Assembly: GCA_045542715.1 (NCBI GenBank)
Contig: JAZQLN010000013.1
Span: forward strand, 54,363-118,362
Direction: 5' to 3'
DNA length: 64,000 nucleotides
Origin: Acutalibacteraceae bacterium
Lineage (GTDB): Bacteria; Bacillota; Clostridia; Oscillospirales; Acutalibacteraceae
Below the pieces are notes generated by a model. The model did no database searches, had not been told where the DNA came from, and saw only the letters and a list, made by a program, of their open reading frames with translations. The translations under genes and the position numbers were made by a program. This document shows, piece by piece, positions 2,160 to 42,184 of this stretch. Position 1 is the first letter of the stretch. The number at the start of each line of letters is the position of its first letter.

Positions 2160-2174
2160 AGGAGGATTTGAACA

Positions 2175-3862: not shown

Positions 3863-3897
3863 TTTCAAAAAATGTGTAACAGTAACCTCTAATTGAA

Positions 3898-3926
3898 TTG
3901 ACAAAAATTATACATAATGTTAAACT
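3898..3926 (+). promoter_or_regulatory. sigmaA-type promoter of the M28 peptidase gene
   Basis: TTGACA-17bp-TAAACT with TGn extension. Confidence 0.6.
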
Positions 3927-3958
3927 TTTGTTATATTATTATGAAGGAGAAATATAAA

Positions 3959-5200: not shown

Positions 5201-5213
5201 CAGCAAAAAATTA

Positions 5214-5237
5214 ACGGCAGTCCGCTTGGACTGCCGT
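5214..5237. terminator. Bidirectional intrinsic terminator between the M28 peptidase gene and potD
   Basis: ACGGCAGTCC-gctt-GGACTGCCGT flanked by A and T runs. Confidence 0.85.
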
Positions 5238-5242
5238 ATTTT

Positions 5243-12256: not shown

Positions 12257-12270
12257 AGTTTTTTCTCCTT

Positions 12271-12960: not shown

Positions 12961-12984
12961 AATTTTACCTCCCTTATTCAATTT

Positions 12985-15813: not shown

Positions 15814-17094
15814 TTACAGTACCTTTACGCCGCCTTCGGGACGGATATTAAGGACATAGCAGGATTTTTCGCCGAACACCGCACAGATTTTCTCTTTGAA
15901 CTCATCAAGAACATCCATGGGAACAAAAGCCTGGATTGTTCCCGCAAAACCGCCTCCGTGAACACGCCATGCACCCTTGCCGCCGAGAACATTCTGACAG
16001 ATTGCAAGTGCAACGCTCACAGGCTGATCAGCAGGAGCTTTGCAGGTATAAACATTCTGATTATACATATATGACGAGAATCCGCTTTCGATTATAAGGC
16101 TCTTGAATGCTTCGAAGTTGCCGTTGCCGAGTGCATCCGCCTGCTTGTCGACACGGATGTTTTCGTTATAGAAATGCATTGCACGGAGAACTGCTCTGTC
16201 TCCTGCCGAATCGCGGATAACGGAAATATTCTTTTCGAATTCAGCCTTATCAACATCACGGAGAACCGCTTTTCCGAACTTAGCCGCAACAGCCTCCATT
16301 TCGCCTCTTACAGCCGCATATTCATCTGTGAGGTCTGCATGGTTTCCGCCTGTGTCAACAATGCAGAGAGCGTGATTGCAGGATGCAAAATCAAAATCGA
16401 CCTTATTGATAACGGGAACGGAGGGGTCTTTGAAATCAATCTGAACAAAGCCGCCTACGGAACAAGCCATCTGGTCCATGAGACCGCAGGGCTTGCCGAA
16501 ATATTCGTTTTCCGCAAACTGAGCTATCTGAGCAATTTCAACGGCACTGATTTTGCCGTCATTATAAAGATGGTTGAGAATTGTACCGATAAGAACTTCA
16601 AATGCAGCCGATGATGAAAGACCCGAACCCGAAAGAACATCGGAAACGGTTGCCGCATCAAAGCCGCCGATTGCATATCCCCTGTTTTTGAAAGCCGCAC
16701 AAACACCTCTGATAAGTGCTTCGGATTTGCCTCTCTCTGAGGGCATCACGCCGAGATTATTGAGTTCAACCGCATCAATTTTATAGCCCTCGGATTTCAC
16801 TCTTACGATACCGTCATCATTTTTTGAAACAACTGCAACCGCATCAAGATTAACGCTTGCCGCAAGAACCTTGCCGTGGTTATGGTCGGTATGGTTGCCG
16901 CCTACCTCGGTTCTGCCGGGTGCGGAGTAGATTTCGATATCCCTGTCTGCACCGAAAAGAGCTTCAAATCTCGAAACGAGCTGAATGTATCTTTCTTTCT
17001 GGAAACCGATATCTTCCTTTTTATAGATTCTCGCAAGAGCAGAGTCATATTCCGCACCTGCAAGCTTTTCTTTCAAAAGATTGGTTTTAATCAT
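15814..17094 (-). CDS. galK: Galactokinase
   Basis: GRTEVGGNHTDH signature, GSGLSSSAA, CGLMDQ, GGGFAG. Confidence 0.85.
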   Translation of the reverse strand: MIKTNLLKEKLAGAEYDSALARIYKKEDIGFQKERYIQLVSRFEALFGADRDIEIYSAPGRTEVGGNHTDHNHGKVLAASVNLDAVAVVSKNDDGIVRVKSEGYKIDAVELNNLGVMPSERGKSEALIRGVCAAFKNRGYAIGGFDAATVSDVLSGSGLSSSAAFEVLIGTILNHLYNDGKISAVEIAQIAQFAENEYFGKPCGLMDQMACSVGGFVQIDFKDPSVPVINKVDFDFASCNHALCIVDTGGNHADLTDEYAAVRGEMEAVAAKFGKAVLRDVDKAEFEKNISVIRDSAGDRAVLRAMHFYNENIRVDKQADALGNGNFEAFKSLIIESGFSSYMYNQNVYTCKAPADQPVSVALAICQNVLGGKGAWRVHGGGFAGTIQAFVPMDVLDEFKEKICAVFGEKSCYVLNIRPEGGVKVL

Positions 17095-17854
17095 TTTCTT
17101 TTATTCCTTTCTCTTCAAGTTTCTTTGATTTTGCATATTCAACAATTTTTTCAACCGCTGTCCAGATACCGTTTACAAACAGTACGGAAATGCCCGAAGC
17201 AAACAGCAACAGCATTATCGGAACAAGGAAGCCTGCCGATAGCGGATCATATACATTTCTGCCCACAATGGTGAAGGAAATCAGCTTCGGCAGGAACCCG
17301 ATAACGGAAAAAAGAATGAATTTTCCGTAACCGAAATCAAGCGAGCCGTAGATTCCCGAAATCCCGTTGATCGGCATGCACGGAATCAGCCTCAGAGCAA
17401 TAAGAACAAGAGAGTTGACCTTACCGTCCTGTTCGATGAGCCGTTTTATTATTTCTGCTTTCGAAATCATCTTCCATGCATTGCCTGCACCGAAACGTCT
17501 GCCCCAAAAATATCTTATTGTCAGGAGAACAACAAATCCTGCTATATTTACGGGAATTGCAAAATAAATCGGAAGAACAATGCCCGTCAGAAAACACACA
17601 GTAGATGTTGCATATATCGGAAAAACGCTTTTCACGGCAAACAAAAGCATCATTGCACCTATAAATATCCATGTGCGGTCAATATGAAGAATAAAATCTT
17701 CAAGCTGGGCAAGCTTTTGCTTTGACTGAGCATACCACCACCATAGGCTGTCATACTGCAGCGAAACCAAAAGAACCGCAACCGCTATTGAAAGAGCAAT
17801 AAGAATCAGTCCGCCGAAAAGCAGATATTTTTTTCGTTTCTGCTTTGTTTTCAA
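17087..17854 (-). CDS. VTT/TVP38 (DedA superfamily) membrane protein
   Basis: Polytopic; RYFWGR and LRLIPCMP (DedA-type R..P..P motif). Confidence 0.75.
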   Translation of the reverse strand: MKTKQKRKKYLLFGGLILIALSIAVAVLLVSLQYDSLWWWYAQSKQKLAQLEDFILHIDRTWIFIGAMMLLFAVKSVFPIYATSTVCFLTGIVLPIYFAIPVNIAGFVVLLTIRYFWGRRFGAGNAWKMISKAEIIKRLIEQDGKVNSLVLIALRLIPCMPINGISGIYGSLDFGYGKFILFSVIGFLPKLISFTIVGRNVYDPLSAGFLVPIMLLLFASGISVLFVNGIWTAVEKIVEYAKSKKLEEKGIKEND

Positions 17855-18007: not shown

Positions 18008-18955
18008 GTGAAAATAGTTGTTCTTGACGGATACACAACAAACCCCGGCGACCTCTCATGGGATTGGCTCAAAGAATGCGGTGAATGCACCGTTCACGAC
18101 CGCACTCCCGCAGAGCTTATCGCAGAACGTACAGAGGATTGTGAAATCGTTATTACCAACAAAACTCCCCTTCGCAGAGAGCTTCTTGAGACTCTGCCGA
18201 AGCTCAGATATATCGGTCTGCTCAGCACAGGCTACAATATCGTTGACTGGGAATACTGCAAAGAAAAAGGCATTCCCGTGTGCAATATCCCGTCTTACAG
18301 CACATCTGCCGTTGCACAGCTTGTTTTTGCTCTTATTCTTGAACACACAAATTCGGTTGCAGTCCACAGCAACTCCGTGCATTCGGGCGAATGGGCACGA
18401 AGCAAGGATTTCTGTTATTGGGAAACTCCTCTCACAGAGCTTGACGGCAAAACCATGGGCATCATCGGTTTCGGAAAAATCGGTAAAGCCGTTGCAAAAA
18501 TTGCATCCGCATTCGGAATGAAAGTTATCGCTTCAACCAATCATCCCTCACCGTATGAAAACGTTGAATTCTGTGATAAGGATGAACTGCTTGCAAAAAG
18601 CGATTTCGTTTCTCTTCACTGTCCCCTCACTCCTCTGACCGAAGGAATGGTAAACGCAGAGTTTCTTTCAAAAATGAAGCACTCCGCATTTCTTATCAAT
18701 ACATCAAGAGGTCAGGTTGTTGACGAAAACTCTCTTGCCGATGCACTGAAAAACGGTATCATCGCAGGTGCGGGTCTTGATGTCATGACCGTTGAACCTC
18801 CGGAAGCGGACAATCCGCTTTTCAGCCTTTCGAACTGCCATATAACCCCTCATATCGCATGGGCAGGCTTTGAAACAAGAGAAAGACTGATGAGGATTGC
18901 AAAAGAAAACGTTCTTGCTTTTCTTGACGGCAACCCCAAAAATATTGTTTATTAA
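18008..18955 (+). CDS. D-2-hydroxyacid dehydrogenase (glycerate dehydrogenase-like)
   Basis: STGYN, GIIGFGKIG, SLHCPL, INTSRG, GLDV, ITPHIAW. Confidence 0.9.
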   Translation: MKIVVLDGYTTNPGDLSWDWLKECGECTVHDRTPAELIAERTEDCEIVITNKTPLRRELLETLPKLRYIGLLSTGYNIVDWEYCKEKGIPVCNIPSYSTSAVAQLVFALILEHTNSVAVHSNSVHSGEWARSKDFCYWETPLTELDGKTMGIIGFGKIGKAVAKIASAFGMKVIASTNHPSPYENVEFCDKDELLAKSDFVSLHCPLTPLTEGMVNAEFLSKMKHSAFLINTSRGQVVDENSLADALKNGIIAGAGLDVMTVEPPEADNPLFSLSNCHITPHIAWAGFETRERLMRIAKENVLAFLDGNPKNIVY

Positions 18956-18969
18956 GAAGGTCGTTTAAT

Positions 18970-19947
18970 TTGATTGTTTCCCGGACACCCGTAAGAATGT
19001 CATTTTTCGGCGGAGGCACGGATTTCCCCGAATTCTTCAATGAATATTCAGGCTCGGTTATCTCCACCACGTTCGATAAATACTGCTATGTAAACGTACG
19101 TCACCTGCCCGAGCTTTTTGAATACAAATCATATCTTGCCTATGCACAGATTGAAAAAGTCAACTCTGTCGATGAGATAAAGCATCCTGCAATACGTAAC
19201 GCAATGGAGTGGCTGAAGCTTGAACGCATCGCAATGAATTACGACGCAGATCTGCCTGCAAAAACAGGGCTCGGCACAAGCAGTGCATTTTCCGTGGGCC
19301 TCCTCAACGCATTATATACCATGCAGGGCATCACAAAAACAAAGCGTGAGCTTGCGGATGACGCAATCCATCTTGAAAGAGTTCTCTGCGATGAAGACGG
19401 CGGTATTCAGGATCAGATTGCCGCATCTTTCGGCGGATTTAACCGCATTGATTTTACCCGTGACGGATATACTGTCAGACCCGTTGATTTTTCAGAAAAA
19501 AGAAAAAACGCACTCAACGACAATCTTATGCTTTTCTTCACGGGTCTTTCAAGATACTCGTTCCAGATTCAGAAAACAACCAAAATGATGCTCGGCAAAC
19601 GAACGGCAGAGCTGCTGAAAATCCGTGACATGGTTGACGCTGCCGAAAAAATACTTACCGACGGCAACCGTTCGCTTGATGATTTCGGTATGCTTCTGAA
19701 TGAAACATGGCAGCTCAAAAAAAGCATAAGCAATGAAATTTCAACCAACATAATCGATTCGGTTTACGATAAAGCCATGGGTGCAGGTGCACTCGGCGGA
19801 AAGCTTCTCGGTGCAGGCGGAGGAGGATGCCTTCTGTTTTATGTTCCGGAAGAAAAACAGGATAATGTCAGAAACGTTCTTTCGGATATGCACGAAGTTA
19901 AATTCCGTTTTGAAAACGAAGGAACAAAAATCATCTGTAACTATTAA
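18970..19947 (+). CDS. hddA: GHMP sugar kinase, D-glycero-alpha-D-manno-heptose-7-phosphate 1-kinase (HddA) type
   Basis: TPVRMSFFGGGTD, GLGTSSAF, GGIQDQ, GKLLGAGGGG; context of HddC-GmhB. Confidence 0.75.
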   Translation: MIVSRTPVRMSFFGGGTDFPEFFNEYSGSVISTTFDKYCYVNVRHLPELFEYKSYLAYAQIEKVNSVDEIKHPAIRNAMEWLKLERIAMNYDADLPAKTGLGTSSAFSVGLLNALYTMQGITKTKRELADDAIHLERVLCDEDGGIQDQIAASFGGFNRIDFTRDGYTVRPVDFSEKRKNALNDNLMLFFTGLSRYSFQIQKTTKMMLGKRTAELLKIRDMVDAAEKILTDGNRSLDDFGMLLNETWQLKKSISNEISTNIIDSVYDKAMGAGALGGKLLGAGGGGCLLFYVPEEKQDNVRNVLSDMHEVKFRFENEGTKIICNY

Positions 19948-19952
19948 TTCAT

Positions 19953-19975
19953 GCCACGGTATTGACTGCCGTGGC
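19953..19975 (+). terminator. Intrinsic terminator after hddA
   Basis: GCCACGGTA-ttgac-TGCCGTGGC followed by TTTCGTTTTCTT. Confidence 0.7.
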
Positions 19976-19985
19976 TTTCGTTTTC

Positions 19986-20014
19986 TTGACATTTAATATA
20001 TAATGTGATAACCT
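19986..20014 (+). promoter_or_regulatory. sigmaA promoter of the cupin-hddC/gmhB-rSAM1 operon
   Basis: TTGACA-17bp-TAACCT with TGn extension. Confidence 0.65.
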
Positions 20015-20052
20015 ATATTCTGTACAAACAGTTTTATAAATGAGGTAATCAG

Positions 20053-20418
20053 ATGATAAAAATTCTCACTCCCGATTTCGTTTTCGAGGACGAAAGAGGC
20101 ACTCTTGTTCAGCTTGTTCACGAGGGCTATAATCAGATAAATGTTGTAACCTCAAAGGCAGGTGTCACAAGAGGAAACCACTGCCACAAACTTAACCGTG
20201 AGGGTTTTTATGTTGTTGAAGGCTCATTCACCGTTGATGTGCATAAAGGGAACGAAAAAGCTTCCCATACCTTCAAAAAGGGTGATATGTTTATCATCGA
20301 GCCTGAAGTCATGCACTCATTTGTTTATCACGAGGATTCAACCCTTATAGGTTTTTATGACAAAGGCGTTGAGCTTCCCGACGGCACAAAAGACATTATT
20401 CCGGAGGTTACGGACTGA
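20053..20418 (+). CDS. Cupin, NDP-keto-sugar isomerase/epimerase-like (FdtA/QdtA/RmlC-like)
   Basis: FEDERGTL, RGNHCH, distal E and H; overlaps the next start. Confidence 0.7.
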   Translation: MIKILTPDFVFEDERGTLVQLVHEGYNQINVVTSKAGVTRGNHCHKLNREGFYVVEGSFTVDVHKGNEKASHTFKKGDMFIIEPEVMHSFVYHEDSTLIGFYDKGVELPDGTKDIIPEVTD

Positions 20419-21671
20419 TGGAAGCAATCGTTCTCGCAGGCGGATTCGGCACAAGGCTGCGCCCCTGCATCGAAAATCTGCCGAAACCTCTTGCACCCGT
20501 CTGCGGCAGACCTTTCATCTCATATCTTCTTGATTATCTTTATGCAAACGGTGTTCACCGTGCGATAATCTCAACAGGATATATGGCTGATGAAATAGTT
20601 AAATCCGTAGGCAAAACCCACAGAGGTATGGTTGTTGATTACAGCCATGAAGAAACCCCTCTCGGCACGGGCGGAGGAATCAAAAAGGCTCTGTCACTCT
20701 GCAAAGATGATATTGCGGTTGTCATAAACGGCGACACCTTCTTTGATGTTGACCTTTTTGAAATGGAAGAATTTCACCGCAATTCAGGTTGTGCAATAAC
20801 TCTCGCTGCAAAGGAAATCCCCGATGTTTACCGTTCGGGATGCATCAAAACAGAAAACGGCAGACTTACGGGTTTCACGGAAAAAGGAACTTCCGGTGCC
20901 GGAAAAATCAACGGCGGGATATATTTCATCAATAAATATTCTCTTGACAATATAACCGAAGAAAAGTTTTCTTTTGAGAAAAATATTCTGGAAAGCGGAA
21001 AATATGATATCGGTGTTTTTGAAAGCAACGGATATTTCATTGATATAGGCATACCCGAAGCATATAATCTTGCACAGACCGACTGTGATAAGCTTGTTTC
21101 AAGAAGAATAAGAAAAGCGGTTTTTCTTGACCGTGACGGCACAATCAACAAAGATACCGTTCATCTTTACCGCAAAGAAGAATTTGAATTTCTCCCCGAT
21201 GCCGGCAAGGCAATTGCCGATATAAAAAAACTCGGTTATCTTGCAATTGTCATCACAAATCAGGCAGGAATCGCAAAGGGACTTTATTCGTCTGATGATG
21301 CGGATACACTCCATAAACATATCGATTCTCAGCTTGCGGAAAATCATTCCGTTATCGCTGACGGATATTATTACTGCCCTCATCATCCCGATGCGGTAAT
21401 TGAAAAATACAGGGTTGACTGTTCATGCAGAAAGCCTCAGCCAGGTCTTATCCTTAAGGCAGTCGATGATTTCCGTGAAAGAGGAATTGAAATTGACCTC
21501 AGCAGTTCATTCATGGCAGGCAACAGAAATTCAGATACCCTCGCAGGCATGAATGCAGGGCTGACAAACAATATTCTCATCGGCTCTGACGAGACATTTA
21601 ATCCCGAAACGGCTTCGGCTCACTATGAAAGTCTTTATGACTTTTCTCAATATATAAAGCAGGTGTTATAG
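20418..21671 (+). CDS. Fused heptose-1-phosphate guanylyltransferase (HddC-like) and heptose-1,7-bisphosphate phosphatase (GmhB)
   Basis: N-terminal LAGGFGTRLR nucleotidyltransferase with FIDIG. C-terminal HAD FLDRDGTIN, ITNQAGI, Zn site CPHHP..CSCRKP. Confidence 0.85.
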   Translation: MEAIVLAGGFGTRLRPCIENLPKPLAPVCGRPFISYLLDYLYANGVHRAIISTGYMADEIVKSVGKTHRGMVVDYSHEETPLGTGGGIKKALSLCKDDIAVVINGDTFFDVDLFEMEEFHRNSGCAITLAAKEIPDVYRSGCIKTENGRLTGFTEKGTSGAGKINGGIYFINKYSLDNITEEKFSFEKNILESGKYDIGVFESNGYFIDIGIPEAYNLAQTDCDKLVSRRIRKAVFLDRDGTINKDTVHLYRKEEFEFLPDAGKAIADIKKLGYLAIVITNQAGIAKGLYSSDDADTLHKHIDSQLAENHSVIADGYYYCPHHPDAVIEKYRVDCSCRKPQPGLILKAVDDFRERGIEIDLSSSFMAGNRNSDTLAGMNAGLTNNILIGSDETFNPETASAHYESLYDFSQYIKQVL

Positions 21672-21672
21672 T

Positions 21673-23589
21673 TTGAAAAATGTTTATTTCGTTCAGGTGG
21701 GTTTTGCATTTGACAAATCCGTCTATCTGCCCTATGCAACGGGAACAATCGTTGCATACTGCAAAAGCTTACCTGAAATAACGGCTGATTATGCGTTCCC
21801 GGAAATCATTTTCCGCAGGGACAATATCGATAATATCGTAAACGGTATGGATAATCCGTATATCGCCGCATTTTCAACCTATGTATGGAATGTTGAATTC
21901 AACAAAGCTCTTGCAAAAGCCGTCAAAGAAAAATATCCCGATTGTAAAATAGTTTTCGGCGGCCACAGCGTTTCGGACCGCATGGAATTTCTTGACGAAG
22001 ACTATATCGATATTCTCACTCTCGGCGAGGGTGAAGAAGTTACCGCCAACCTGCTTTTAACTCTAAAAAATTCAGGCAGCCTCAGCGAATGCCGAGGAAT
22101 TGCATTCAGGGACAATAAAGGAAACAAGGTTCTCACAGAGCCTAACTGCCCCGAAACCGTTGAACACTATCCCTCCCCCTATCTTACGGGTGTTTTCGAT
22201 TCCATAATCGAAAAAAATCCCGATATGATGTTTGATACAATCATAGAAACAAACCGCGGATGCCCATATAACTGTGCATACTGTGACTGGAGCAACCATA
22301 AAAAGCTCCGACTTTTCCCCATTGATAAAGTCAAGGGCGAACTCAAATGGCTTTCCGACCATAATATCGAATATTGCTTCTGTGCCGACTCAAACTTCGG
22401 AATGTTTGAACGTGACACCGAAATTGCCGAATATATAGTGGAACTCAACACAAAAACGGGATTCCCCAAGGTGTTCCGCCCCTGCTATGAAAAAAACAGT
22501 GCAGACAGGGTTTTCAGAATTTCGAAAACACTCAACTCCAGAGGTCTCGATAAAGGTGCAACAATGGCATATCAGACCCTCTGCGACGAAGCACTGAAAA
22601 ACATCAACCGAAAAAATCTGACAATGGAGCATTTTTCGGACCTGATGGCAAACTATACAAAGGCAAATATACCGACATATTCTGAGCTCATTCTCGGTCT
22701 CCCCGGAGAAACCGCAGAAAGCTTCTGTCAGGGACTCTGCAAGCTTCTGCGTGCGGGTCAGCATAATTCAATCAGCGTTTATTACTGCGAATTATTGCCC
22801 AATGCGCCGATGTGCAAACCCGAATATATGGAAAAATTCAAAATCGAACCGATGAAGGTTCAGTTTAATCATATTCATTCCGCAAGCGGCAAAAAAGATA
22901 TGATTCCCGAGTATTCGTATCTTGTGCGTTCAACAAGCACGATGCCCCGCGATGCATGGGTTTACGCAAACCTTTTCTCAATTTGTCTCCAGTGTTTCCA
23001 CAGTCTCGGACTTCTGAGATTTTTTGCAATCCACGCATATCACGCAATGAATATCGATTACTATGATTTCTATAAAGGTCTGCTCGATTTCTGCCTTGAA
23101 GATGACGGTCTTGTGGGTAATCTTTTCAGAGAAATCAAAAGAAAACTTGACGGCTCGCTTGAAGGCGAATGGAATCACAGCAATCCCGTTTTCGGAAATG
23201 TCACATGGTTTTTCGAGGAAGGTCTTTTCCTTGAAATGCTTTATAACTTTGATGAATTCAAAAAAATCATCGATAAATTTGTGAAACCTCTCGGATTCAA
23301 TGAAAAAGTCTACTCCGAGCTTCTGAAATTCCAGCTCAACGCAATCAAGCACCCCTTTGAAGACGGAAAAGAATTTGAATGCGGTTTTGACTTCCTTTCT
23401 TACTTCAAAAACATGGGTTCAAACGAAAAATCAACCCTTGAAGAAAGAAAAACAAGCTACATTTTCAAAGCAAAAACACATTATGAGGACTGGCCTCGCT
23501 TCGCAAAGGAAATCGTCTGGTATGGCAGGCGTAAAGGTGCTACACTTTACACAAATGACACTAACCTGATAGAAGTCAGATTATTGTAA
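21673..23589 (+). CDS. Cobalamin-dependent radical SAM enzyme, paralog 1
   Basis: N-terminal B12-binding Rossmann domain (LPY..G, YVWN, VFGGH, GEGE), ETNRGCPYNCAYC, DSNFG, ELILGLPGET. Confidence 0.9.
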   Translation: MKNVYFVQVGFAFDKSVYLPYATGTIVAYCKSLPEITADYAFPEIIFRRDNIDNIVNGMDNPYIAAFSTYVWNVEFNKALAKAVKEKYPDCKIVFGGHSVSDRMEFLDEDYIDILTLGEGEEVTANLLLTLKNSGSLSECRGIAFRDNKGNKVLTEPNCPETVEHYPSPYLTGVFDSIIEKNPDMMFDTIIETNRGCPYNCAYCDWSNHKKLRLFPIDKVKGELKWLSDHNIEYCFCADSNFGMFERDTEIAEYIVELNTKTGFPKVFRPCYEKNSADRVFRISKTLNSRGLDKGATMAYQTLCDEALKNINRKNLTMEHFSDLMANYTKANIPTYSELILGLPGETAESFCQGLCKLLRAGQHNSISVYYCELLPNAPMCKPEYMEKFKIEPMKVQFNHIHSASGKKDMIPEYSYLVRSTSTMPRDAWVYANLFSICLQCFHSLGLLRFFAIHAYHAMNIDYYDFYKGLLDFCLEDDGLVGNLFREIKRKLDGSLEGEWNHSNPVFGNVTWFFEEGLFLEMLYNFDEFKKIIDKFVKPLGFNEKVYSELLKFQLNAIKHPFEDGKEFECGFDFLSYFKNMGSNEKSTLEERKTSYIFKAKTHYEDWPRFAKEIVWYGRRKGATLYTNDTNLIEVRLL

Positions 23590-23603
23590 GTCCTAATAAT
23601 ATC

Positions 23604-23633
23604 AAAAGGAGCCGCATTTATGCGGCTCCTTTT
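23604..23633. terminator. Bidirectional terminator between convergent rSAM1 and rSAM2
   Basis: AAAAGGAGCCGCA-ttta-TGCGGCTCCTTTT, perfect 13-bp stem. Confidence 0.9.
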
Positions 23634-23658
23634 TCCTTGCAAGTAAAGCTATATCACT

Positions 23659-25593
23659 TTACACAGTTTCAATTTTATCTTTGTATGAACGGCTGCCCAT
23701 TTTGCCGTACCATACAACCTTTTTGCCGAATTCTTCCCAACCCGAGGCAGGATCGCTGTCCGTAAACTCAAATCTGAACCTTCCTTTTACGGGAGGCACG
23801 TATTCGTTGACATAAATCTTCTTGAAATAGTTGTTAAAATCAATTTCAGCCTCACAAGATGACGATTTTTCATCGGGTTTTCTGAGCACCGCCCTCTGAT
23901 ATCCGTAAAGCTGTGAAAGAATGCTTTCATCTTCAATAACAGATGAAAGATACGGCATCATTTCTCCATAGAATACATCAAGATTTCCGCAGAGATTGAG
24001 GAAGATGTATTCGTAATTCTCCCACACAAGATTGCCTGCAAAAGGCACGGTAAGTCTCGGGTTTTCGCCGTTTGCAAGGCTCGCAAAGTAATTCTTGACC
24101 GTTCCGAATACACCGAGCGTAAACGGAGCATTACCGTTTTCAATATATTCAATAAGTCCCTCATAAAAGCTTCTGTAGCTCTTATCAAGCTCATAAAATG
24201 CGTAGATTGCAAAGCATCTGAGAAGTCCGCATCCGTGCATCGCCTGAGTAAAACCGCCGAATGCCGCACTCTTCTGCCACATATCGCAGGGCATGCTGTC
24301 AGTTTCCGTTATGATATTGGTTTTTTCGGGGATATAATAGGCATCCGCTGCACAGTGATATCTCACTATCTCGGAATTTGAGGTTTTTATTCCGTGTTTT
24401 TCCATATATTCCGTCTGCCCGAGAATTGAGTTCGGCAGTACGATACAGTTATAAACCTCAAAAATAAAGTGCTGACCTATTTCAAAAAGCTTGCATATTC
24501 CGTCTGCAAAGCTGTCATAGGTTTCGCCGGGCAGACCGAGAATCAATTCGGAATAAACCTGTAAGTTTTCTTCGTGGTATACACCGAAATCCTTACGAAA
24601 ATGCTCAAGAGACATATTCTTTCTGCCGATGTTTTCGAGCACAACGGGCGAAAGGCTCTGGAGCGATATTGTGGCACCTGCTCTGTCAATCCCCTTGCGG
24701 TTGAAGCGTCTTACGATTTCAAGCACCCTTTCACGGTTGCTTTTTGAATAGTTTATCCTCACTCTTTCGGGATAGCCGTATTTTTCCTTGGCATTGACAA
24801 AAGCATCCGCAATCAGCAAATCATCGGGGCTTATGCCGAAATTCGCATCCGCACCCCAGACAAATCTGATTTTGTTTCTGCCCATCCATTCAATTTCGGC
24901 AAAAACCTTATCAAGCGGAAAAAATCTTGTTTTTTCTTTAAGCAGACCCCAATCACAGTATGCACATCTGTTGGGGCATCCCCTGCTTGTTTCAATGATG
25001 GTGTTGAATTCCATATCGGGATATTTTTCAAAAAATCCGTCAAACCAACCGTCAAGATACGGCGATGCATAATCGTTATCGCACAAAGCTTTCACTTCGC
25101 TCATAACACATTTACTGCCGTCTCTGTAGGCAATATTCGGCACAGACGAAACATCACCGCCGAGGTTTTCAAGGAGACTGCCGAAGGTTATTTCTCCCTC
25201 GCCGAAGCAGAGATAATCAACCTGCGGATTGTTTTCAAGGAACGAAGTGTTATGAGGAATATTGTGGCCGCCGAAAACGGTTATGCAATCGGGATAAGCC
25301 TTCTTGATTTCCGATGCAAGAACAAGATTATATTCCGTATTCCAGCAGTAGTTTGAAAATCCGACCACGGCGGGATTTTCCATTTCCGCAACAACCTGCT
25401 CAATGCTTTTTCTGATGAATATGAAATCCCTGAATTCATAAAGCGAAGCAACCCGGCTGTTACGCCAGGCATTTGCAACTATCACACCCGCCGTATACGG
25501 CAGATAAACCACTTTTGAATCCTTGCCCGATGAAACATCCACCTGGACAAAATAAACATTGGCTTTTGCGGACAAAAAATCACTTACTTTCAT
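23659..25593 (-). CDS. Cobalamin-dependent radical SAM enzyme, paralog 2 (true start may be TTG 25575)
   Basis: VYLPYTAG, NYCWN, VFGGH, GEGE, ETSRGCPNRCAYC, DANFG, ELILGLPGET. Confidence 0.9.
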   Translation of the reverse strand: MKVSDFLSAKANVYFVQVDVSSGKDSKVVYLPYTAGVIVANAWRNSRVASLYEFRDFIFIRKSIEQVVAEMENPAVVGFSNYCWNTEYNLVLASEIKKAYPDCITVFGGHNIPHNTSFLENNPQVDYLCFGEGEITFGSLLENLGGDVSSVPNIAYRDGSKCVMSEVKALCDNDYASPYLDGWFDGFFEKYPDMEFNTIIETSRGCPNRCAYCDWGLLKEKTRFFPLDKVFAEIEWMGRNKIRFVWGADANFGISPDDLLIADAFVNAKEKYGYPERVRINYSKSNRERVLEIVRRFNRKGIDRAGATISLQSLSPVVLENIGRKNMSLEHFRKDFGVYHEENLQVYSELILGLPGETYDSFADGICKLFEIGQHFIFEVYNCIVLPNSILGQTEYMEKHGIKTSNSEIVRYHCAADAYYIPEKTNIITETDSMPCDMWQKSAAFGGFTQAMHGCGLLRCFAIYAFYELDKSYRSFYEGLIEYIENGNAPFTLGVFGTVKNYFASLANGENPRLTVPFAGNLVWENYEYIFLNLCGNLDVFYGEMMPYLSSVIEDESILSQLYGYQRAVLRKPDEKSSSCEAEIDFNNYFKKIYVNEYVPPVKGRFRFEFTDSDPASGWEEFGKKVVWYGKMGSRSYKDKIETV

Positions 25594-25600
25594 TAATTTT

Positions 25601-25626
25601 AACGGGTGTACATCAGCACACCCGTT
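25601..25626 (-). terminator. Hairpin downstream of the smaller membrane protein gene, immediately upstream of rSAM2
   Basis: AACGGGTGT-8nt-ACACCCGTT; arms shared with the hairpin at 29506-29534. Confidence 0.6.
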
Positions 25627-25631
25627 TATTT

Positions 25632-26483
25632 TTATTTGCAGAGCTTCTTTGTTACAGCTTCATCGATTTCATTGAATGTTTTGTTTGCGTAAGTGTTGCA
25701 GTTTGCGGCAACAACAAGTGTAAGTGCAACGGAAACAACAATCATATATGCATTTCTTGAAATCATCATGCTCTGAGGAATTGCAGCAGCGGCAAGACAT
25801 ACATATCCGAGTGCTTCGGCTTTGCCGTCTTTTGATCTGAACGCCTTGAACGCAACATACAACGTGAAAACTGCCATAAGAATTGTTACGATTGATGAGA
25901 ACCAATGAGATTTGAAAGAATTGAATGTGAACGAATCCTTGAATACTTTAAAGCAATATACACCCGCACCGAAAAGAACAGCTTCCGAAACCGCAAAAAT
26001 GATTTTATCAACAACGGATGATTCTCTGAGCTTATGCCAGTTGATAATGAATCCTGCCGCAAAAAGTACGGGAATTGCGGATATGGATGTATACTGAAAA
26101 AATGCGTGAGAAAGAATTGCAAGTGCCGCCGCAACGGGAAGATATCTGATTTCTTTCACAAACATCATTCCGCCTGCATAAACGGCAAGCATTGCAAACA
26201 CTTCAACGTTGATTTCAAGATAATCGTACACTCCGAGAACAAGTCCGCACGAAGAAATAACGCCGAAAAGATGCCGAACAGTCATGAATTTGCCGTCAGA
26301 CGGAATATTCATTGAAAGCACAAATGAAAATGCAAATGCACCTGCAATCAAAGCAAGGTAAACATCAGGTTGAGTCATGCCTCTCAACCCTGAACCGTGA
26401 AGCCCTTTGAGAATGATAAGAACAAAGCAAAGGATAAACACCGTTATACGGTTTTTTGATTGTGAAACTGTTTTTTCTGCCAT
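25632..26483 (-). CDS. Polytopic membrane protein, hypothetical (distant paralog of 29539-30774)
   Basis: Multiple hydrophobic segments; ATG 26483 after RBS GAGGTG; directly downstream of rSAM3. Confidence 0.75.
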   Translation of the reverse strand: MAEKTVSQSKNRITVFILCFVLIILKGLHGSGLRGMTQPDVYLALIAGAFAFSFVLSMNIPSDGKFMTVRHLFGVISSCGLVLGVYDYLEINVEVFAMLAVYAGGMMFVKEIRYLPVAAALAILSHAFFQYTSISAIPVLFAAGFIINWHKLRESSVVDKIIFAVSEAVLFGAGVYCFKVFKDSFTFNSFKSHWFSSIVTILMAVFTLYVAFKAFRSKDGKAEALGYVCLAAAAIPQSMMISRNAYMIVVSVALTLVVAANCNTYANKTFNEIDEAVTKKLCK

Positions 26484-26496
26484 TTCCGACACCTCG

Positions 26497-28425
26497 TTAA
26501 TCAATATATTTTATTTCGGGATTATAACAATCGGAGATATACAGTGCGGCAGATTTGTTTCTGCCGTACCAGACAACCGAGCAGGCGTAATCATAAAGAT
26601 TTCCGCACAGCTTGTCATTGTTGACTGTTATAACTGTTTTTTTCTTTTCGGGAGGAGCATATCTGCCCTCATATATGCCTTTGAAGCAACTGTAAAAATC
26701 ATAATCGGAAACTATTTCCGGATTTTCAGAACACGGTCTTTTCAGAACCTTTCTCTGAAAATCAAAAATCGGCTTCAGATTTTCTTTCCCGAATTTATCG
26801 GCAAAGAAGGCTTCAAGCTCATCGTATATTTCATCGGCAATTTCCAGCGATTTGAGAAAACAGATTTCATCAAACTGCCAACAAATATCGCCCAGCCCGT
26901 CACACTGTACCGCCCATGAATTTTTGCGGTGTATCATCCCTTCCGCAAAGTGCTTTACAATTGAATAAACCTTATTGCACGCTTTGTTTTCGGGATTTGC
27001 GGAAAGCCCGGCAATCATGGAATAAATATCATAATAGCTTATTCCGAATTCATTACGCAGATACATAGCCGCAAGTCTGAAAAGGCCGATATTATGAAAC
27101 GCCTGAATAATACAGGAAAAAATCACACAGTAAACCCAATCCTCACGGCTGAGAGTGTTTGTTTCGATAACCGCATTGTTGTATTCGGTTATTTCCTGCT
27201 TTGTGTCAGCTTTGCAATGAGCCTGTGCAAACGGAGTTTTAACTGTTTTTATGCCGTATTTTTCAACAGATTCTTTTGAACCCATTTCCGAATTCGGGAG
27301 CAGGTCGCAGGTATAAACCTGAATTGCCTTGTGCTGACCGTATTCGAGCAATTCGCAAAGTCCGGCGGTGAAGCTTTCTTTTGTTTCTCCCGGAAGACCG
27401 AGAATAAGCTCCGACGATGTTGAAATTCCGAGACGGCTGTATTCACTCATGAGTTCACGGAAATGCTCAAGAGGAATATTTTTTCTGCCGATATTTTCAA
27501 GCACTTCGGGCGACATACTCTGGAACGAAAGCGTCTGTGCCTTGTCAAGACCGTACTCATTGAATCTCATGCAGATTTTTTTTACGAATTCCGTTCTGTT
27601 TTTGGTGAAACACACTCTGAAATTCTGCGGATATCCCGTTTTCTTTTTAAGAGAAATTATGTATTCCGCAATCTCTTCATCACGGTCGAAAAGTCCGAAA
27701 TTCCCGTCTGCGCAGTAAACATATTCGATTTTATGCTCTGCAATCCAGTCCATTTCAGCTTTTACCCTCTCCATCGGGAAAAGCCTCACCTTGCTGCCGA
27801 GAGTTCCCCAGTCGCAGAATGAGCAGTGAAACGGACATCCTCTGTTTGTTTCGAGAACAGCGGAAAACCTTGTTTCGCCGTCTGCGATACCGTCAAAAAT
27901 ACCGCTGAGATACGGCGACGGATACTCGCTCATACAAAATCCTTCTTCATGGGTTTTCACAAGGGTTTCGCCGTTTCTGAATGCAATGTTTGCAACACCG
28001 TCAAGGCTTCTGTCATTCAAGAAAGCTAGCACAACCTGCCTGAACGCTTCCTCCCCTTCACGGTAGATTACAACATCAACTTCAGGGCATTCCTCAAAGG
28101 TTTCAAAATCACGGAGAACATTATGTCCTCCGAAAACAATTTTCACCTCGGGATATGCTTTTTTTATCTCTTTTGCAAGAGCTTTATTATATTCATAGTT
28201 CCACACGGAACAGGAAAACGCAACCATAAACGGATTTTCTGTTTTATTGACAGCTTTTTCAATCGGTTCATGAGTATAAATAAATCCGCCGATTCTGCAT
28301 GAGCTCTTTATTGTTTCATCCGCAAAAGCATATGCGGCAATACAGCCTGATGCATAGGGAATGTAGACTGATTTTATATCGTTGCCGTAAACATTGTTTG
28401 CCTGAACAAAATATATGTTTTTCAA
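26497..28425 (-). CDS. Cobalamin-dependent radical SAM enzyme, paralog 3
   Basis: VYIPYASG, SVWN, VFGGH, REGE, ETNRGCPFHCSFC, DGNFG, ELILGLPGET. Confidence 0.9.
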   Translation of the reverse strand: MKNIYFVQANNVYGNDIKSVYIPYASGCIAAYAFADETIKSSCRIGGFIYTHEPIEKAVNKTENPFMVAFSCSVWNYEYNKALAKEIKKAYPEVKIVFGGHNVLRDFETFEECPEVDVVIYREGEEAFRQVVLAFLNDRSLDGVANIAFRNGETLVKTHEEGFCMSEYPSPYLSGIFDGIADGETRFSAVLETNRGCPFHCSFCDWGTLGSKVRLFPMERVKAEMDWIAEHKIEYVYCADGNFGLFDRDEEIAEYIISLKKKTGYPQNFRVCFTKNRTEFVKKICMRFNEYGLDKAQTLSFQSMSPEVLENIGRKNIPLEHFRELMSEYSRLGISTSSELILGLPGETKESFTAGLCELLEYGQHKAIQVYTCDLLPNSEMGSKESVEKYGIKTVKTPFAQAHCKADTKQEITEYNNAVIETNTLSREDWVYCVIFSCIIQAFHNIGLFRLAAMYLRNEFGISYYDIYSMIAGLSANPENKACNKVYSIVKHFAEGMIHRKNSWAVQCDGLGDICWQFDEICFLKSLEIADEIYDELEAFFADKFGKENLKPIFDFQRKVLKRPCSENPEIVSDYDFYSCFKGIYEGRYAPPEKKKTVITVNNDKLCGNLYDYACSVVWYGRNKSAALYISDCYNPEIKYID

Positions 28426-28454
28426 CGCATCATCCCCTTTGCATAGTTATTTTT

Positions 28455-28483
28455 ATTATAATACTATATATAAAGAATGTCAA
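28455..28483 (-). promoter_or_regulatory. Perfect-consensus sigmaA promoter for rSAM3-membrane protein(-rSAM2)
   Basis: Minus-strand TTGACA-17bp-TATAAT. Confidence 0.8.
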
Positions 28484-28508
28484 TAAAACAAAATATTTGT
28501 GTTGTAAA

Positions 28509-28537
28509 TTGACTATTGTATCAAATTGTGATAAAGT
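28509..28537 (+). promoter_or_regulatory. Divergent sigmaA promoter for the SDR gene
   Basis: TTGACT-17bp-TAAAGT with TGn extension. Confidence 0.6.
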
Positions 28538-28567
28538 ATTCTTATAATGTAAATGGAAGTGACTTTA

Positions 28568-29503
28568 ATGCTTGATATTCTCGTAACGGGCGGAGCCGGC
28601 TATATAGGCTCAGTTCTTGTTCCTCTTCTTTTGTCCAAAGGTTGCAGAGTGACTGTTCTTGACAATCTTTTTTATAATCAGAATTCATTGCTTGAATGCT
28701 GTGCAAATCCGAATTTCAGAATGATTAACGCAGATGCAAGAAATGAAAACGCAGTCAGAGAAGCTATGAAGGGTAAAGATTATATTATACCTCTTGCAGC
28801 ACTCGCAGGCTTCCCTATCTGCGACAAAGAGGCTTGTTCCGCATATTCTATAAACCTTGACGCAATCAAAATGATTCTTCGTCTGCGTGATAAAGGACAA
28901 CGAATTATTTTCCCGTGCACAAACAGCGGTTACGGTCTCGGCGAAGGTGAAAAATTCTGCACCGAAAGCTCTCCGATCAGACCTATTTCAATCTACGGCA
29001 AAAGCAAGGTTGAAGCAGAAGCAGCCGTGCTCAGCGAAAGCGGTACAACTGCATTCAGATTTGCAACCCTTTTCGGTGCATCTCCCAGAATGAGAACGGA
29101 CCTTCTTGTCAACGATTTCGTTTACAGAGCTGTTTTTGACAGAACTCTTGTTGTATTTGAAGGCAGCTTCAAGAGAAACTATCTCCATGTAAGGGATGCC
29201 GCAAATGCGTTCTGGTTTGCAATTGAGAATTTTGAAAAAATGGAAGGCGGCACTCACAACTGCGGTCTTTCCGATTCAAACCTTTCAAAAATCGAGCTCT
29301 GCGAAAAAATCAAACTTATTCTGCCGAAGTTCACTTATATTGAAGCTCCCGTCGGAGAAGACCCTGACAAGAGAAACTATATCGTTTCCAACGAAAAGCT
29401 TGAATCACTCGGATGGAAGCCGTTTTATTCGCTTGATGACGGCATCAGAGAGTTAACAAACGCATACGAAATCATCAAAAACAATAAATATTCCAACATA
29501 TAA
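28568..29503 (+). CDS. Extended SDR, GDP-D-glycero-D-manno-heptose 4-dehydrogenase (Cj1427/WcaG-like)
   Basis: TGGAGYIGS, IIPLAAL, TNSGYG, YGKSK, SPRMR.DLLVNDF, RNY.HVRD, GEDPDKRNY.VSN. Colinear with C. jejuni Cj1427 as I recall it. Confidence 0.75.
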   Translation: MLDILVTGGAGYIGSVLVPLLLSKGCRVTVLDNLFYNQNSLLECCANPNFRMINADARNENAVREAMKGKDYIIPLAALAGFPICDKEACSAYSINLDAIKMILRLRDKGQRIIFPCTNSGYGLGEGEKFCTESSPIRPISIYGKSKVEAEAAVLSESGTTAFRFATLFGASPRMRTDLLVNDFVYRAVFDRTLVVFEGSFKRNYLHVRDAANAFWFAIENFEKMEGGTHNCGLSDSNLSKIELCEKIKLILPKFTYIEAPVGEDPDKRNYIVSNEKLESLGWKPFYSLDDGIRELTNAYEIIKNNKYSNI

Positions 29504-29505
29504 AA

Positions 29506-29534
29506 ATCGGGTGTACCTTGGGGGTACACCCGAT
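29506..29534. terminator. Bidirectional terminator between the SDR gene and the larger membrane protein gene
   Basis: ATCGGGTGTACC-ttggg-GGTACACCCGAT, perfect 12-bp stem. Confidence 0.85.
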
Positions 29535-29538
29535 AATT

Positions 29539-30774
29539 TTATACTGCCCAGCCTTGCTGGAAACATGATGCATATATAAGGAAATAAACCGCAAGCAGAA
29601 TTTCTTTGCCCTTGAAGAATGACTTGAGCTGTTCCGTTGTTTTTTCGAAAGCCGGGTCTTTTTTGAAGAACATAACAAAAGCAAAGATAAACTGATTAAG
29701 AACACCAGCCTGAGCAAGTCTGCTGTAGTCCGTTGAAATAAGCCAGCTGATGGGAATAAAAAGCAATCCGAGAATAAAGCAAAGGAACACGAATTTCTGA
29801 GGCTTTGTTTCCGAATTCTTTATACAAAGAACCCAAACAGGTACGAATCCTGCCAAAACAACAAGCAGAATCATGCAAAGCGATAAGAGACCGTCATAGT
29901 TAGTCTCGTGATATTCGCCTATCTGACCTGTTGTAATCATAAATACTGTTTTGATAACTTCAAACGGAGACATGTCTCTGACTTCGTGGCCGAGGTCAGC
30001 ATCAATCGAGTTGCCGTAGAAGAACATATCAAACGGGCGGATTTCATCATACTCGAATTTTATTCCGCTTTTTTGCTCCATAATCTTCCACATTTCATCA
30101 AATGTGACCTTCATAAAATCTCTTGATTCAAAAGCGAAGAAATATGTTGCACCGACTACCGCAACCGCCGTAATGAGGAATATAACAAAATTTGATTTGC
30201 TCTGCTTTTCTCTGACTGCGAAATAGAAACAAATTCCGATAACCGCAACAAAATAAGTGAGCGTAAACGGATAATAAACAAATACGCCGGCAAGGGCAAA
30301 CACGGGAGTAAACCAGCGGAGATATTTGTTTGTCGCACATACAACGGCAAGCAATGCACAGATAAACATATGAATATCAAGCAAACCGAAATATCTTGAA
30401 AATCCGTACATTGTCAATGTTCCGAAAACGAAGAAAAGAACAAAAACATAAAGAACATTTCTTTTTTCTTTTTCCGTGCATCTGATAATTCTGCCCAGAA
30501 GCAGCGATACCGCAAGCAACGTGAGCACAAGCACGGTAATCATAAATCCCTTCAGCCACGAAGCTGTCGGATTATCCGTTAAAAGATTGACGAACGAACC
30601 GACCAGCATTCTTGAATTGAAGCCCATGGAATAATCAAGAAGATAGTAGCTGTTGAAGTCGTTTTCCATGTTTATAATCATTCCGCGGTTAAAGAATGCC
30701 TGGATACCGAGAATAATAAAGATGCCAAGCTCATAGCCAAAGTATAATATTATTTTTGAAACCTTGGTTTTCAA
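29539..30774 (-). CDS. Polytopic membrane protein, possibly GT-C-like transferase
   Basis: Many TM segments; acidic residues in loops (ENDFNSYYLLDY..GF.SR, LLD, STDYSR); one large extracytoplasmic loop; TTG start. Confidence 0.7.
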   Translation of the reverse strand: MKTKVSKIILYFGYELGIFIILGIQAFFNRGMIINMENDFNSYYLLDYSMGFNSRMLVGSFVNLLTDNPTASWLKGFMITVLVLTLLAVSLLLGRIIRCTEKEKRNVLYVFVLFFVFGTLTMYGFSRYFGLLDIHMFICALLAVVCATNKYLRWFTPVFALAGVFVYYPFTLTYFVAVIGICFYFAVREKQSKSNFVIFLITAVAVVGATYFFAFESRDFMKVTFDEMWKIMEQKSGIKFEYDEIRPFDMFFYGNSIDADLGHEVRDMSPFEVIKTVFMITTGQIGEYHETNYDGLLSLCMILLVVLAGFVPVWVLCIKNSETKPQKFVFLCFILGLLFIPISWLISTDYSRLAQAGVLNQFIFAFVMFFKKDPAFEKTTEQLKSFFKGKEILLAVYFLIYASCFQQGWAV

Positions 30775-35637: not shown

Positions 35638-35721
35638 TCAATAAACAGGTTGAAAAAAATTGATTTTTATGTTAAGGTGTATGGTGTAAATCATACACCT
35701 TTTCTTTTAGGAGAGATAACA

Positions 35722-42023: not shown

Positions 42024-42184
42024 GTAAATCATCCTTTCGGAATTTTATACGGTATATTTTAACATACGTTATAGAAATAAACAATATATTTTAAAATATT
42101 TTTGCTAAATTTTACTTATATATTGAAAAAATACACACGACTGTGTTACAATATCCAAAATATAAAATTGTCAGGGTGAATGAG

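Follow-up and report, generated by a model that had tools for sequence, protein, structure and literature searches.

A candidate surface-glycan cassette of ruminant-gut Oscillospirales that pairs GDP-heptose-type enzymes with variable cobalamin-dependent radical SAM paralogues

Why are genes of a guanosine diphosphate (GDP)-heptose type packed together with three radical S-adenosylmethionine (SAM) enzymes that depend on cobalamin in the genome of a gut clostridium, and what might their products make? The genes lie between positions 18970 and 30774 of the window, by which we mean the whole stretch of 64,000 nucleotides analysed here (assembly GCA_045542715.1, contig JAZQLN010000013.1, positions 54,363 to 118,362), taken from the metagenome-assembled genome (MAG) of an Acutalibacteraceae bacterium. 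An initial annotation, made from the sequence alone, listed nine of them: a sugar-phosphate kinase, a cupin, an HddC–GmhB fusion, the three radical SAM enzymes (here rSAM1, rSAM2 and rSAM3), a short-chain dehydrogenase/reductase (SDR) resembling Cj1427 of Campylobacter jejuni, and two polytopic membrane proteins. It proposed that they produce a multiply C-methylated, branched or rearranged heptose, which the membrane proteins attach to a lipid, cell-wall polymer or protein. All nine genes are present, where it had placed them, in the open reading frame (ORF) list of the window, and Pfam, NCBIfam and PDB sequence searches agree with their identities, the Cj1427 call included. We favour the reading, with a probability of roughly 0.5, that in Oscillospirales of the ruminant gut (Acutalibacteraceae-like MAGs) they form a conserved cassette for the tailoring of a surface glycan, whose product is probably a methylated sugar of an unusual kind, destined for the cell surface. 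The protein families are known ones throughout, and what is new is their combination, that is, a GDP-heptose-type 4-keto pathway, a variable set of enzymes like TokK, and two uncharacterised membrane proteins.

Position, in the first place, ties the radical SAM enzymes to sugar-nucleotide genes. On the forward strand the cupin gene (20053–20418) overlaps the HddC–GmhB fusion gene (20418–21671) by 1 bp at 20418, and a 1 bp gap (21671 to 21673) precedes the rSAM1 gene (21673–23589), a tight packing that the initial annotation had described correctly. The association is also repeated elsewhere. The kinase and HddC–GmhB fusion occur together in six or more further loci from Oscillospirales MAGs, in which gene order is shuffled and 1 to at least 5 radical SAM paralogues are present. 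A close relative, L001 (GCA_045539875.1; 81% identity), is syntenic with the window and carries only the rSAM1 orthologue together with an unrelated 494-amino-acid (aa) B12 radical SAM protein. The loci L002/L003, L084, L085 and L086 (55–57% identity), along with L006, hold the same gene set in another order: hddC-gmhB, the Cj1427-like SDR, the small cupin, the kinase, 1 to at least 5 TokK-like radical SAM enzymes and an RmlD-like SDR. L002/L003, L085 and L086 also contain a 416–421 aa homologue of the larger (411 aa) membrane protein and a second polytopic protein of 224–254 aa, neither of which was found in L084 or L006. The kinase is retained in cassettes L001, L002, L006, L084–L086 and L092, and L091 and L092 have different content at the same chromosomal site as the window. 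The co-localisation predicted for these genes is thus borne out in several rearranged Oscillospirales loci, where homologues of the radical SAM enzymes lie with hddA, hddC-gmhB, the Cj1427 homologue and the cupin.

The partnership extends beyond the clostridia. A scan of GTDB species found sister radical SAM enzymes (30–34% identity) within heptose-type clusters of four distant lineages, so that three further phyla have such enzymes in a GDP-heptose setting. The cluster is complete in Desulfocucumis palustris (L013), in Candidatus Methanoperedens (L014) and in a MAG of the Pelagibacteraceae (SAR11; L020), all of which have GmhA-like, HddA, HddC and GmhB proteins, a GDP-mannose-dehydratase-like (GMD-like) enzyme, RmlC and a split transketolase; the GmhA-like gene was recognized by Pfam as SIS_2 in L013 and L014, and in L020 by a phmmer match to the L013 gene. 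A Reyranellaceae MAG (L016) gave matches to the kinase, HddC–GmhB, the GMD-like enzyme, RmlC, DegT and TylF, and none to GmhA or transketolase. In L013 (1–21917), L014 (1–21911), L016 and L020 the cluster is larger and includes several SDRs, DegT and TylF-type methyltransferases beside the sister B12 radical SAM gene, which suggests that horizontal transfer has spread the means to make a higher sugar with many branches. When radical SAM loci were compared, hddA and hddC were both present in 10 of 22 close loci (those whose radical SAM protein matched the window enzymes with a score of at least 290 bits) and in none of 63 distant B12 radical SAM loci (Fisher p = 2e-7, without correction for shared ancestry and with three loci picked from the protein search). 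Pure coincidence is very unlikely, because the clustering is conserved across rearranged loci and phyla.

What kind of reaction might the radical SAM enzymes catalyse? rSAM1 (638 aa, 21673–23589, +), rSAM2 (644 aa, 23659–25593, −) and rSAM3 (642 aa, 26497–28425, −) are mutually 38–40% identical over their full length (rSAM1 and rSAM2, 38%). All have the Pfam B12-binding and Radical_SAM domains and a CxxxCxxC motif, the B12-binding domain of rSAM1 scoring 29.5 bits, just below the Pfam cut-off of 32.1. The cluster-binding cysteines of rSAM1 (C197-x3-C201-x2-C204) are invariant. The top NCBIfam family is KedN5, a subfamily of methylcobalamin-dependent C-methyltransferases, below the family cut-off, and the nearest solved structures are, in matches of rSAM1, TokK (7KDX, E 1.3e-88) and CysS (E 3.7e-51); rSAM3 matches TokK with E 8e-89, residues 20–594 aligning with residues 21–617 of 681. 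Among 28 diverse homologues, W72 of rSAM1, which aligns with TokK Trp76, is invariant, and W206, which aligns with TokK Trp215, is kept in at least 90%. Trp76 is the residue beneath the corrin ring of TokK (bioRxiv 10.1101/2021.07.10.451909; PMC12931638), and of the methylases aligned in the TokK paper only TokK, ThnK and CysS have both tryptophans (bioRxiv 10.1101/2021.07.10.451909), which the three window enzymes retain. On these sequence features we assign rSAM1–3 to the TokK/ThnK/CysS branch of class B cobalamin radical SAM methylases, and they are putative C-methylating enzymes using methylcobalamin. The rearrangement included in the initial proposal is not supported, because the window enzymes do not group with HpnJ or OxsB: an HpnJ/OxsB-like ring contraction or rearrangement was considered and set aside, with HpnJ scoring 34–67 bits against 206–274 bits for the KedN5 family, and TokK being the top structure.

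TokK and ThnK, which alkylate C6 of carbapenems, and CysS, which extends the alkoxy group of cystobactamid, are iterative class B methylases and share with the cassette enzymes a Rossmann cobalamin domain and a radical SAM core with CxxxCxxC; the likeness may extend into the large C-terminal domain, where the last 100–150 residues diverge. The cassette enzymes differ from them in context, which is nucleotide-sugar metabolism rather than a β-lactam or non-ribosomal peptide synthetase (NRPS) pathway, and, whereas TokK is a single iterative enzyme, a cassette may have several paralogues, which form a separate clade at about 35% identity. GenK and GenD1 (gentamicin) and MoeK5 (moenomycin) carry out radical C-methylation at a carbohydrate carbon, the same chemistry as that proposed here. 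Unlike the putative heptose substrate of the cassette, their substrates are aminoglycoside or phosphoglycolipid intermediates, and their genes lie in actinomycete antibiotic clusters. These three have been classed as Csp3 methylases (PMC12931638). None of them appeared among the PDB and NCBIfam matches of the rSAM proteins, a result of those searches in which no direct sequence comparison was made.

In a neighbour-joining tree of 42 full-length copies, the clostridial enzymes form one group with at least five orthologous clades that are mixed among genomes. None of the full cassettes sampled for this tree lacks the rSAM1 'core' clade, not even L085, which has a single radical SAM gene. Orthologues of rSAM2 come from L084, L007 and L012 and those of rSAM3 from L012, L002, L086 and L084, and these two clades, with two others absent from the window, are combined differently genome by genome. 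Such mixing agrees with paralogues that act at different positions or steps, and with a modification that is carried further in some strains than in others. Because the number of paralogues ranges from 1 to at least 5 per genome, drawn from at least five clades, the degree of methylation is suggested to be a variable surface trait.

The wider TokK/CysS-like branch is large: at E 1e-30 it has over 1,400 members, almost all of them uncharacterised. In a search for informative gene fusions, most of the long rSAM homologues proved to be intein insertions or tandem radical SAM fusions. Seven distant homologues (P0203, P0205, P0206, P0208, P0209, P0213 and P0215) reach 790–1120 aa through inteins (Intein_splicing, LAGLIDADG_3, PT-HINT) inside the radical SAM core, mostly starting shortly after CxxxCxxC, and P0208 has two such insertions. 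Three others (P0152, P0153 and P0227; 1170–1280 aa) are tandem fusions of two TokK-like units, the double domains being confirmed by Pfam for P0227 only. P0202 (876 aa) has a C-terminal domain like glycosyltransferase family 2 (GT2; 26.8 bits), with no detectable similarity to the small GT2 associated with cassettes. The cassettes of L001 (15648–17132), L086 (18519–20030) and L007 (2295–3767) also encode B12 radical SAM proteins of another, unrelated family (about 500 aa), of which the window has no member. In NCBIfam the L001 and L086 copies match HpnJ, PhpK, BchE and the MCR glutamine methylase best, with every score under its cut-off.

Which sugar would these enzymes act upon? The kinase (325 aa, 18970–19947, +) has Pfam GHMP_kinases_N and GHMP_kinases_C domains, HddA as its top NCBIfam family (E 2e-39) and PDB matches to WcbL (4USM, E 3.6e-36) and 3K85 (E 5e-36). 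The fusion protein (417 aa, 20418–21671, +) consists of an HddC-like nucleotidyltransferase domain (NTP_transferase; residues 1–220) with matches to NCBIfam HddC (E 1e-51) and to Yersinia HddC (6JQ8, E 4.5e-40), and a GmhB-type HAD phosphatase domain (residues 232–415), which scores 156.7 bits with TIGR00213 (GmhB_yaeD), above the cut-off of 149.6, and matches GmhB 3L8E (E 4e-37). The SDR (316 aa, 28553–29503, +) is a putative GDP-heptose C4 dehydrogenase, being 53% identical to Cj1427 (6VO6, E 3.5e-106) over 308 residues with zero gaps and with the YxxxK motif aligned. Cj1427 is the C4 dehydrogenase of GDP-heptose and has a tightly bound NADH that is recycled by 2-oxoglutarate in a ping-pong reaction, with L-2-hydroxyglutarate as product (PMC10680097).

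In the cupin (121 aa, 20053–20418, +), which Pfam matches to Cupin_2, FdtA and Polysacc_synt_C, the residues H43-x-H45...E50...H88 make up a metal-binding signature. Its PDB matches are weak, one (E 6.5e-5) to Cap5F in its cupin domain, which catalyses C3 epimerisation of a 4-keto sugar, and one to 7ZVM, a 113-aa 'mannose-6-phosphate isomerase' (E 1e-3). Because its gene lies directly 3' of the Cj1427-like gene in most cassettes (for example L002, L085 and L086), the protein is a putative keto-sugar C3 epimerase or isomerase. A second role is suggested by the complementary spread of cupin and GmhA, the clostridial cassettes having the cupin and never GmhA, while L013, L014 and L020 have a GmhA-like protein and RmlC and no small cupin. 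In view of this spread and of the weak match to the cupin-type isomerase 7ZVM, the cupin could replace GmhA as a non-orthologous sedoheptulose-7-phosphate isomerase.

The cassette thus resembles the capsular GDP-heptose pathway of C. jejuni, which consists of HddA, GmhB, HddC, GmhA, the C4-dehydrogenase Cj1427, the C3/C5-epimerase Cj1430 and the C4-reductase Cj1428. The activation trio is the same, a Cj1427 homologue is present, and the logic of C4 oxidation, epimerisation and then reduction that operates in C. jejuni (PMC10680097) is matched by the logic of the cassette. Many relatives of the window add an RmlD-like SDR of 281–292 aa (281 aa in the comparison with C. jejuni), which could be the C4 reductase. 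Unlike C. jejuni, the cassette lacks GmhA and the window lacks a C4 reductase; the epimerase candidate is a metal-type cupin resembling the CapF cupin domain and not of RmlC type; 1 to at least 5 cobalamin radical SAM enzymes are added where the C. jejuni pathway has none; and the host is a Gram-positive-type Clostridia MAG without capsule-export genes or GT-A or GT-B glycosyltransferases in about 39 ORFs scanned.

Several observations weigh against the reading of a cassette that tailors heptose for the surface, and the first of these concern the identity of the sugar. The kinase scores 136 bits with HddA, for which the NCBIfam equivalog cut-off is 600, and the HddC domain scores 175.7 bits where the cut-off is 300; since both are so far under, these proteins are best described from their sequences as relatives, not proven equivalents, of HddA and HddC. 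A phmmer search with GmhA from L013 and from L014 as queries found no gmhA in the window, nor in a single one of the clostridial cassettes, and the heptose identity of the sugar therefore depends on similarity to HddA, HddC, GmhB and Cj1427. The absence of a C4 reductase from the window belongs here too. Of the GDP-heptose activation first proposed, then, the similarity of three enzymes stands, and the expected gmhA is missing from the neighbourhood. These findings would suit an activated sugar that is not a heptose, with the trio acting on a hexose 6-phosphate (for example mannose 6-phosphate to mannose 1,6-bisphosphate, mannose 1-phosphate and GDP-mannose) or another sugar phosphate, and the Cj1427-like enzyme oxidising the resulting GDP-sugar; it is in keeping with this that the distant clusters L013, L014 and L020 do have a GmhA-like gene. 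Yet the top matches of all four enzymes are heptose-specific (WcbL/HddA, Yersinia HddC, GmhB above its cut-off and Cj1427), gmhA may sit elsewhere in the genome, and the cupin could supply the isomerase step, so that we regard a non-heptose sugar as distinctly unlikely.

A second group of observations concerns the methyl acceptor, since that the sugar itself is C-methylated is something we infer. The nearest characterised radical SAM enzymes (TokK, ThnK, CysS and KedN5) have non-sugar substrates, and the window enzymes do group with that non-sugar family, an outcome which the initial annotation had said would count against its proposal. They do so as a clade of their own at about 35% identity to characterised relatives, and the alignment of rSAM1 with TokK ends at residue 499, the last 100–150 residues, in the C-terminal domain, diverging; the substrate therefore cannot be read from the family, and the grouping weakens the sugar assignment without refuting it. 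Moreover, hddA and hddC are not both within reach (10 kb) in 12 of the 22 close radical SAM loci, which are short contigs or have radical SAM genes beside other genes. Neighbours in loci without heptose genes include the small GT2 (L007, L011 and L012), the 411-aa family (L004 and L007) and DegT with a carbamoyltransferase (L004), and the flanks of L005 and L023 (several kb to 10 kb) have no recognisable sugar-nucleotide genes. The association of radical SAM and heptose genes is strong, but it is not obligatory within 10 kb. It could be, then, that the radical SAM enzymes methylate another component of the same glycan system (acceptor glycan, lipid or polyprenyl carrier, or protein), with the heptose as one sugar in it; the paralogues that lie apart from heptose genes in L004, L005, L007, L011 and L023, the company that they keep there, and the non-sugar substrates of the TokK family would all be accommodated. 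Set against this are the single base between rSAM1 and hddC-gmhB, the sister enzymes of four lineages in heptose clusters that otherwise consist entirely of sugar-nucleotide enzymes, and the lack of lipid-synthesis or precursor-peptide genes in any cassette, and we consider another methyl acceptor unlikely.

The remaining difficulties concern the attachment of the sugar. Neither membrane protein has a Pfam match at default threshold or an NCBIfam match. The larger (411 aa, 29539–30774, −) gave an all-helical AlphaFold model with a predicted local distance difference test (pLDDT) score of 80 and a predicted TM-score (pTM) of 0.84, for which the only high-probability Foldseek matches are PglB, the C-mannosyltransferase DPY19, yeast STT3 and ALG3 (probability 0.90–0.99, E 0.02–0.1). 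Its first transmembrane (TM) segment spans residues 8–28 and its most conserved block is the first loop (residues 43–73), with an invariant D47; because the N terminus is Lys-rich, the positive-inside rule would have this loop face outward, as in GT-C enzymes. Weak Pfam matches are to DUF6057 (E 7e-4) and GtrII (E 0.26). Family members adjoin radical SAM genes in L001, L002, L004, L007, L085, L086, L091 and L092; a metagenome scan with the family returned only three contigs, each shorter than 2 kb and without gene context. From the model it is plausible that the 411-aa protein is a GT-C-fold glycosyltransferase. It must be set against this that its GT-C matches as a whole have probabilities of 0.25–0.99, E-values of 0.02–1.6 and TM-scores of 0.30–0.42, none reaching E ≤0.001. 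The smaller protein (25632–26504, −; about 7 TM segments by hydropathy) is annotated as a 290-aa ORF, and its homologues begin at Met8, which gives 283 aa; eleven homologues all have 283 aa, and L001 carries a homologue. It too was modelled as all-helical (pLDDT 82), and the fold search gave noise only (G-protein-coupled receptors, rhodopsins and one partial EmbC match with a probability of 0.35). A polytopic protein of similar size follows the 411-aa family in L002, L085, L086 and L007. The attachment role first proposed for both membrane proteins thus finds a weak GT-C-like fold signal in the larger and none in the smaller.

Three-component systems for extracytoplasmic glycosylation in Gram-positive bacteria consist of a GT2 that synthesizes the C55-P-sugar (such as CsbB/GtrB), a small flippase and a GT-C enzyme (such as YfhO/GtrII). 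The 411-aa GT-C-like protein, whose predicted first outer loop holds a conserved Asp, and the second, small polytopic protein give the cassette a comparable make-up, and several relatives have a small GT2; unlike the known components, however, neither membrane protein is significantly similar in sequence to YfhO, GtrII or GtrA. No homologue of the GT2 (as polyprenyl-phosphate-sugar synthase) was found in the window, a further point on the adverse side, and the small GT2 lies beside radical SAM genes in L006, L007, L011, L012 and L086. Its top NCBIfam match is AglJ (E 2e-8), a dolichol-phosphate glycosyltransferase, and the L012 copy has no TM segment. Every genome concerned, moreover, is an uncultured MAG.

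A cassette of this kind might instead be a small-molecule (secondary-metabolite) cluster, making for example an antibiotic-like compound that contains heptose. TokK, ThnK, CysS and KedN5 all come from antibiotic pathways, and heptose nucleotides are reported to feed septacidin-type natural products (PMC9978623). Scaffold enzymes (NRPS, polyketide synthase, cyclitol or nucleoside genes), a regulator and an exporter are nevertheless lacking from the cassettes, whose surrounding genes are housekeeping ones and whose constant partners are the two polytopic membrane proteins, one of them GT-C-like. Variable paralogues at one chromosomal site are also, in our judgement, what a surface-glycan locus should show. 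Taken with these features, a secondary metabolite seems very improbable.

Our working hypothesis for the surface-glycan cassette is a chain of four steps, for which as a whole we see an even chance; our confidence is highest for the first two steps and lowest for the last. The kinase and HddC–GmhB would make an activated seven-carbon sugar. The Cj1427-like SDR would then oxidise C4, with 2-oxoglutarate reoxidising the bound NADH as in C. jejuni, a step backed by strong homology, and the metal-type cupin, for which the homology is weak, may subsequently epimerise or isomerise the 4-keto sugar. In the third step the 5'-deoxyadenosyl radical generated by each radical SAM enzyme from SAM at its [4Fe-4S] cluster would abstract a hydrogen atom, and a methyl group would pass from methylcobalamin to a carbon of the heptose, giving one or more C-methyl groups. 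The enzymes could act on the sugar while it is bound to GDP or, at the cytoplasmic face, when it is linked to a lipid. Since TokK and CysS work iteratively, the outcome may be a longer side chain, or branches that are ethyl or isopropyl groups. Plausible methylation sites, by analogy, are C3 or C5 beside the 4-keto group, since TokK attacks the carbon beside the β-lactam carbonyl and then extends the new methyl, or the side-chain carbinols C6 and C7; GenK methylates a side-chain carbinol. Finally, the GT2, which in relatives is encoded nearby, would pass the modified sugar to polyprenyl phosphate, and the 411-aa GT-C-like protein, perhaps with the 283-aa protein as partner, might transfer it to an acceptor outside the membrane.

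Transcription signals suggest that the genes are divided among several units, namely the kinase; the cupin, hddC-gmhB and rSAM1; rSAM3, the smaller membrane protein and rSAM2; the SDR; and the 411-aa gene. A terminator scan found a 13 bp GC-rich hairpin, a likely terminator, in the convergent gap between rSAM1 and rSAM2 (23604–23633) and a 13 bp hairpin with T-rich tails on both strands in the convergent gap between the SDR and 411-aa genes (29506–29534), and a promoter scan found TTGACA-17-TATAAT upstream of rSAM3 (28483–28455, −), a match to the sigma-70 consensus only, at 12 of 12 positions. A D-isomer-family 2-hydroxyacid dehydrogenase gene (18008–18955, +) ends 15 bp ahead of the kinase gene. 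A role for it as a cassette member that recycles 2-oxoglutarate was considered and rejected: the gene is kept only in L001 and is absent from all other cassettes, and the enzyme is of the D-isomer family, yet Cj1427 yields L-2-hydroxyglutarate. It is treated here as a mere neighbour.

DNA of the window was found in sequencing runs from sheep, goat and other gut metagenomes, and related MAGs bear the labels Acutalibacteraceae, Oscillospiraceae or Clostridia. A look for RNA runs yielded a single one, of unclear type. The 411-aa gene comes after an amino-acid ABC transporter operon. The flanks contain housekeeping genes (M42 peptidases, a galactokinase-like kinase, a DedA/VTT protein, the amino-acid ABC transporter, RluA, TrkAH and a GH30 enzyme), and in the polysaccharide-gene scan of the window, which covered the larger ORFs (about 39) situated before 49052, no GT-A or GT-B match and no capsule-export gene was found. 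The galactokinase-like GHMP kinase (426 aa) and the DedA/VTT-domain membrane protein encoded upstream of it lie at 15814–17854 (−), their genes overlapping by 8 bp; L001 has retained this pair, which runs divergently to the cassette. Elsewhere in the window, three tandem Exo_endo_phos (endonuclease/exonuclease/phosphatase) paralogues follow a phosphoglucomutase-like gene at 1266–3862 (+), and three ORFs of 419, 321 and 519 aa, in 34378–36615 (+) and 40473–42032 (−), have no Pfam match. Among the related loci, some cassettes adjoin putative defence or mobile genes, that of L085 a gene for a 1175-aa TIR_2 protein (1951–5478) and that of L002 AbiH, DUF6414 and phage-like small genes (12242–14137).

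The initial annotation had known of no described pathway that pairs heptose activation with such radical SAM enzymes, and this holds, in that B12 radical SAM enzymes with GDP-heptose were found in none of the literature searched. Sugar, GDP, glycan and polysaccharide are words that do not occur in a review of these B12 enzymes from 2026 (PMC12931638). If our reading is true, nucleotide-sugar tailoring would gain a B12-dependent radical C-methylation of heptose, possibly repeated, by methylases whose number varies from genome to genome, and the TokK/CysS-like branch would acquire its first primary-metabolism, cell-surface substrate. The enzymes could also serve as biocatalysts for the C-alkylation of sugars. 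A more ambitious form of the proposal, which we put forward tentatively and hold to be possible though doubtful, is that paralogous and perhaps iterative TokK-like methylases, up to five or more of them, work on an activated heptose and so give the surface of gut Clostridia a hitherto unknown class of higher-carbon sugars (C8 and above) that are poly-C-methylated, branched or chain-extended, and that this partnership also operates in SAR11, Methanoperedens and Desulfotomaculia. Our main reading would itself predict new and very hydrophobic sugar epitopes on abundant clostridia of the ruminant gut, where they could affect recognition by phages or by the host, and the surface structure of these bacteria would be tied to the supply of vitamin B12 in the gut. 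The parallel clusters of SAR11 and Methanoperedens suggest that the chemistry is ecologically widespread, and in its strongest form the finding would represent a widespread and unrecognised B12-dependent branch of carbohydrate biochemistry.

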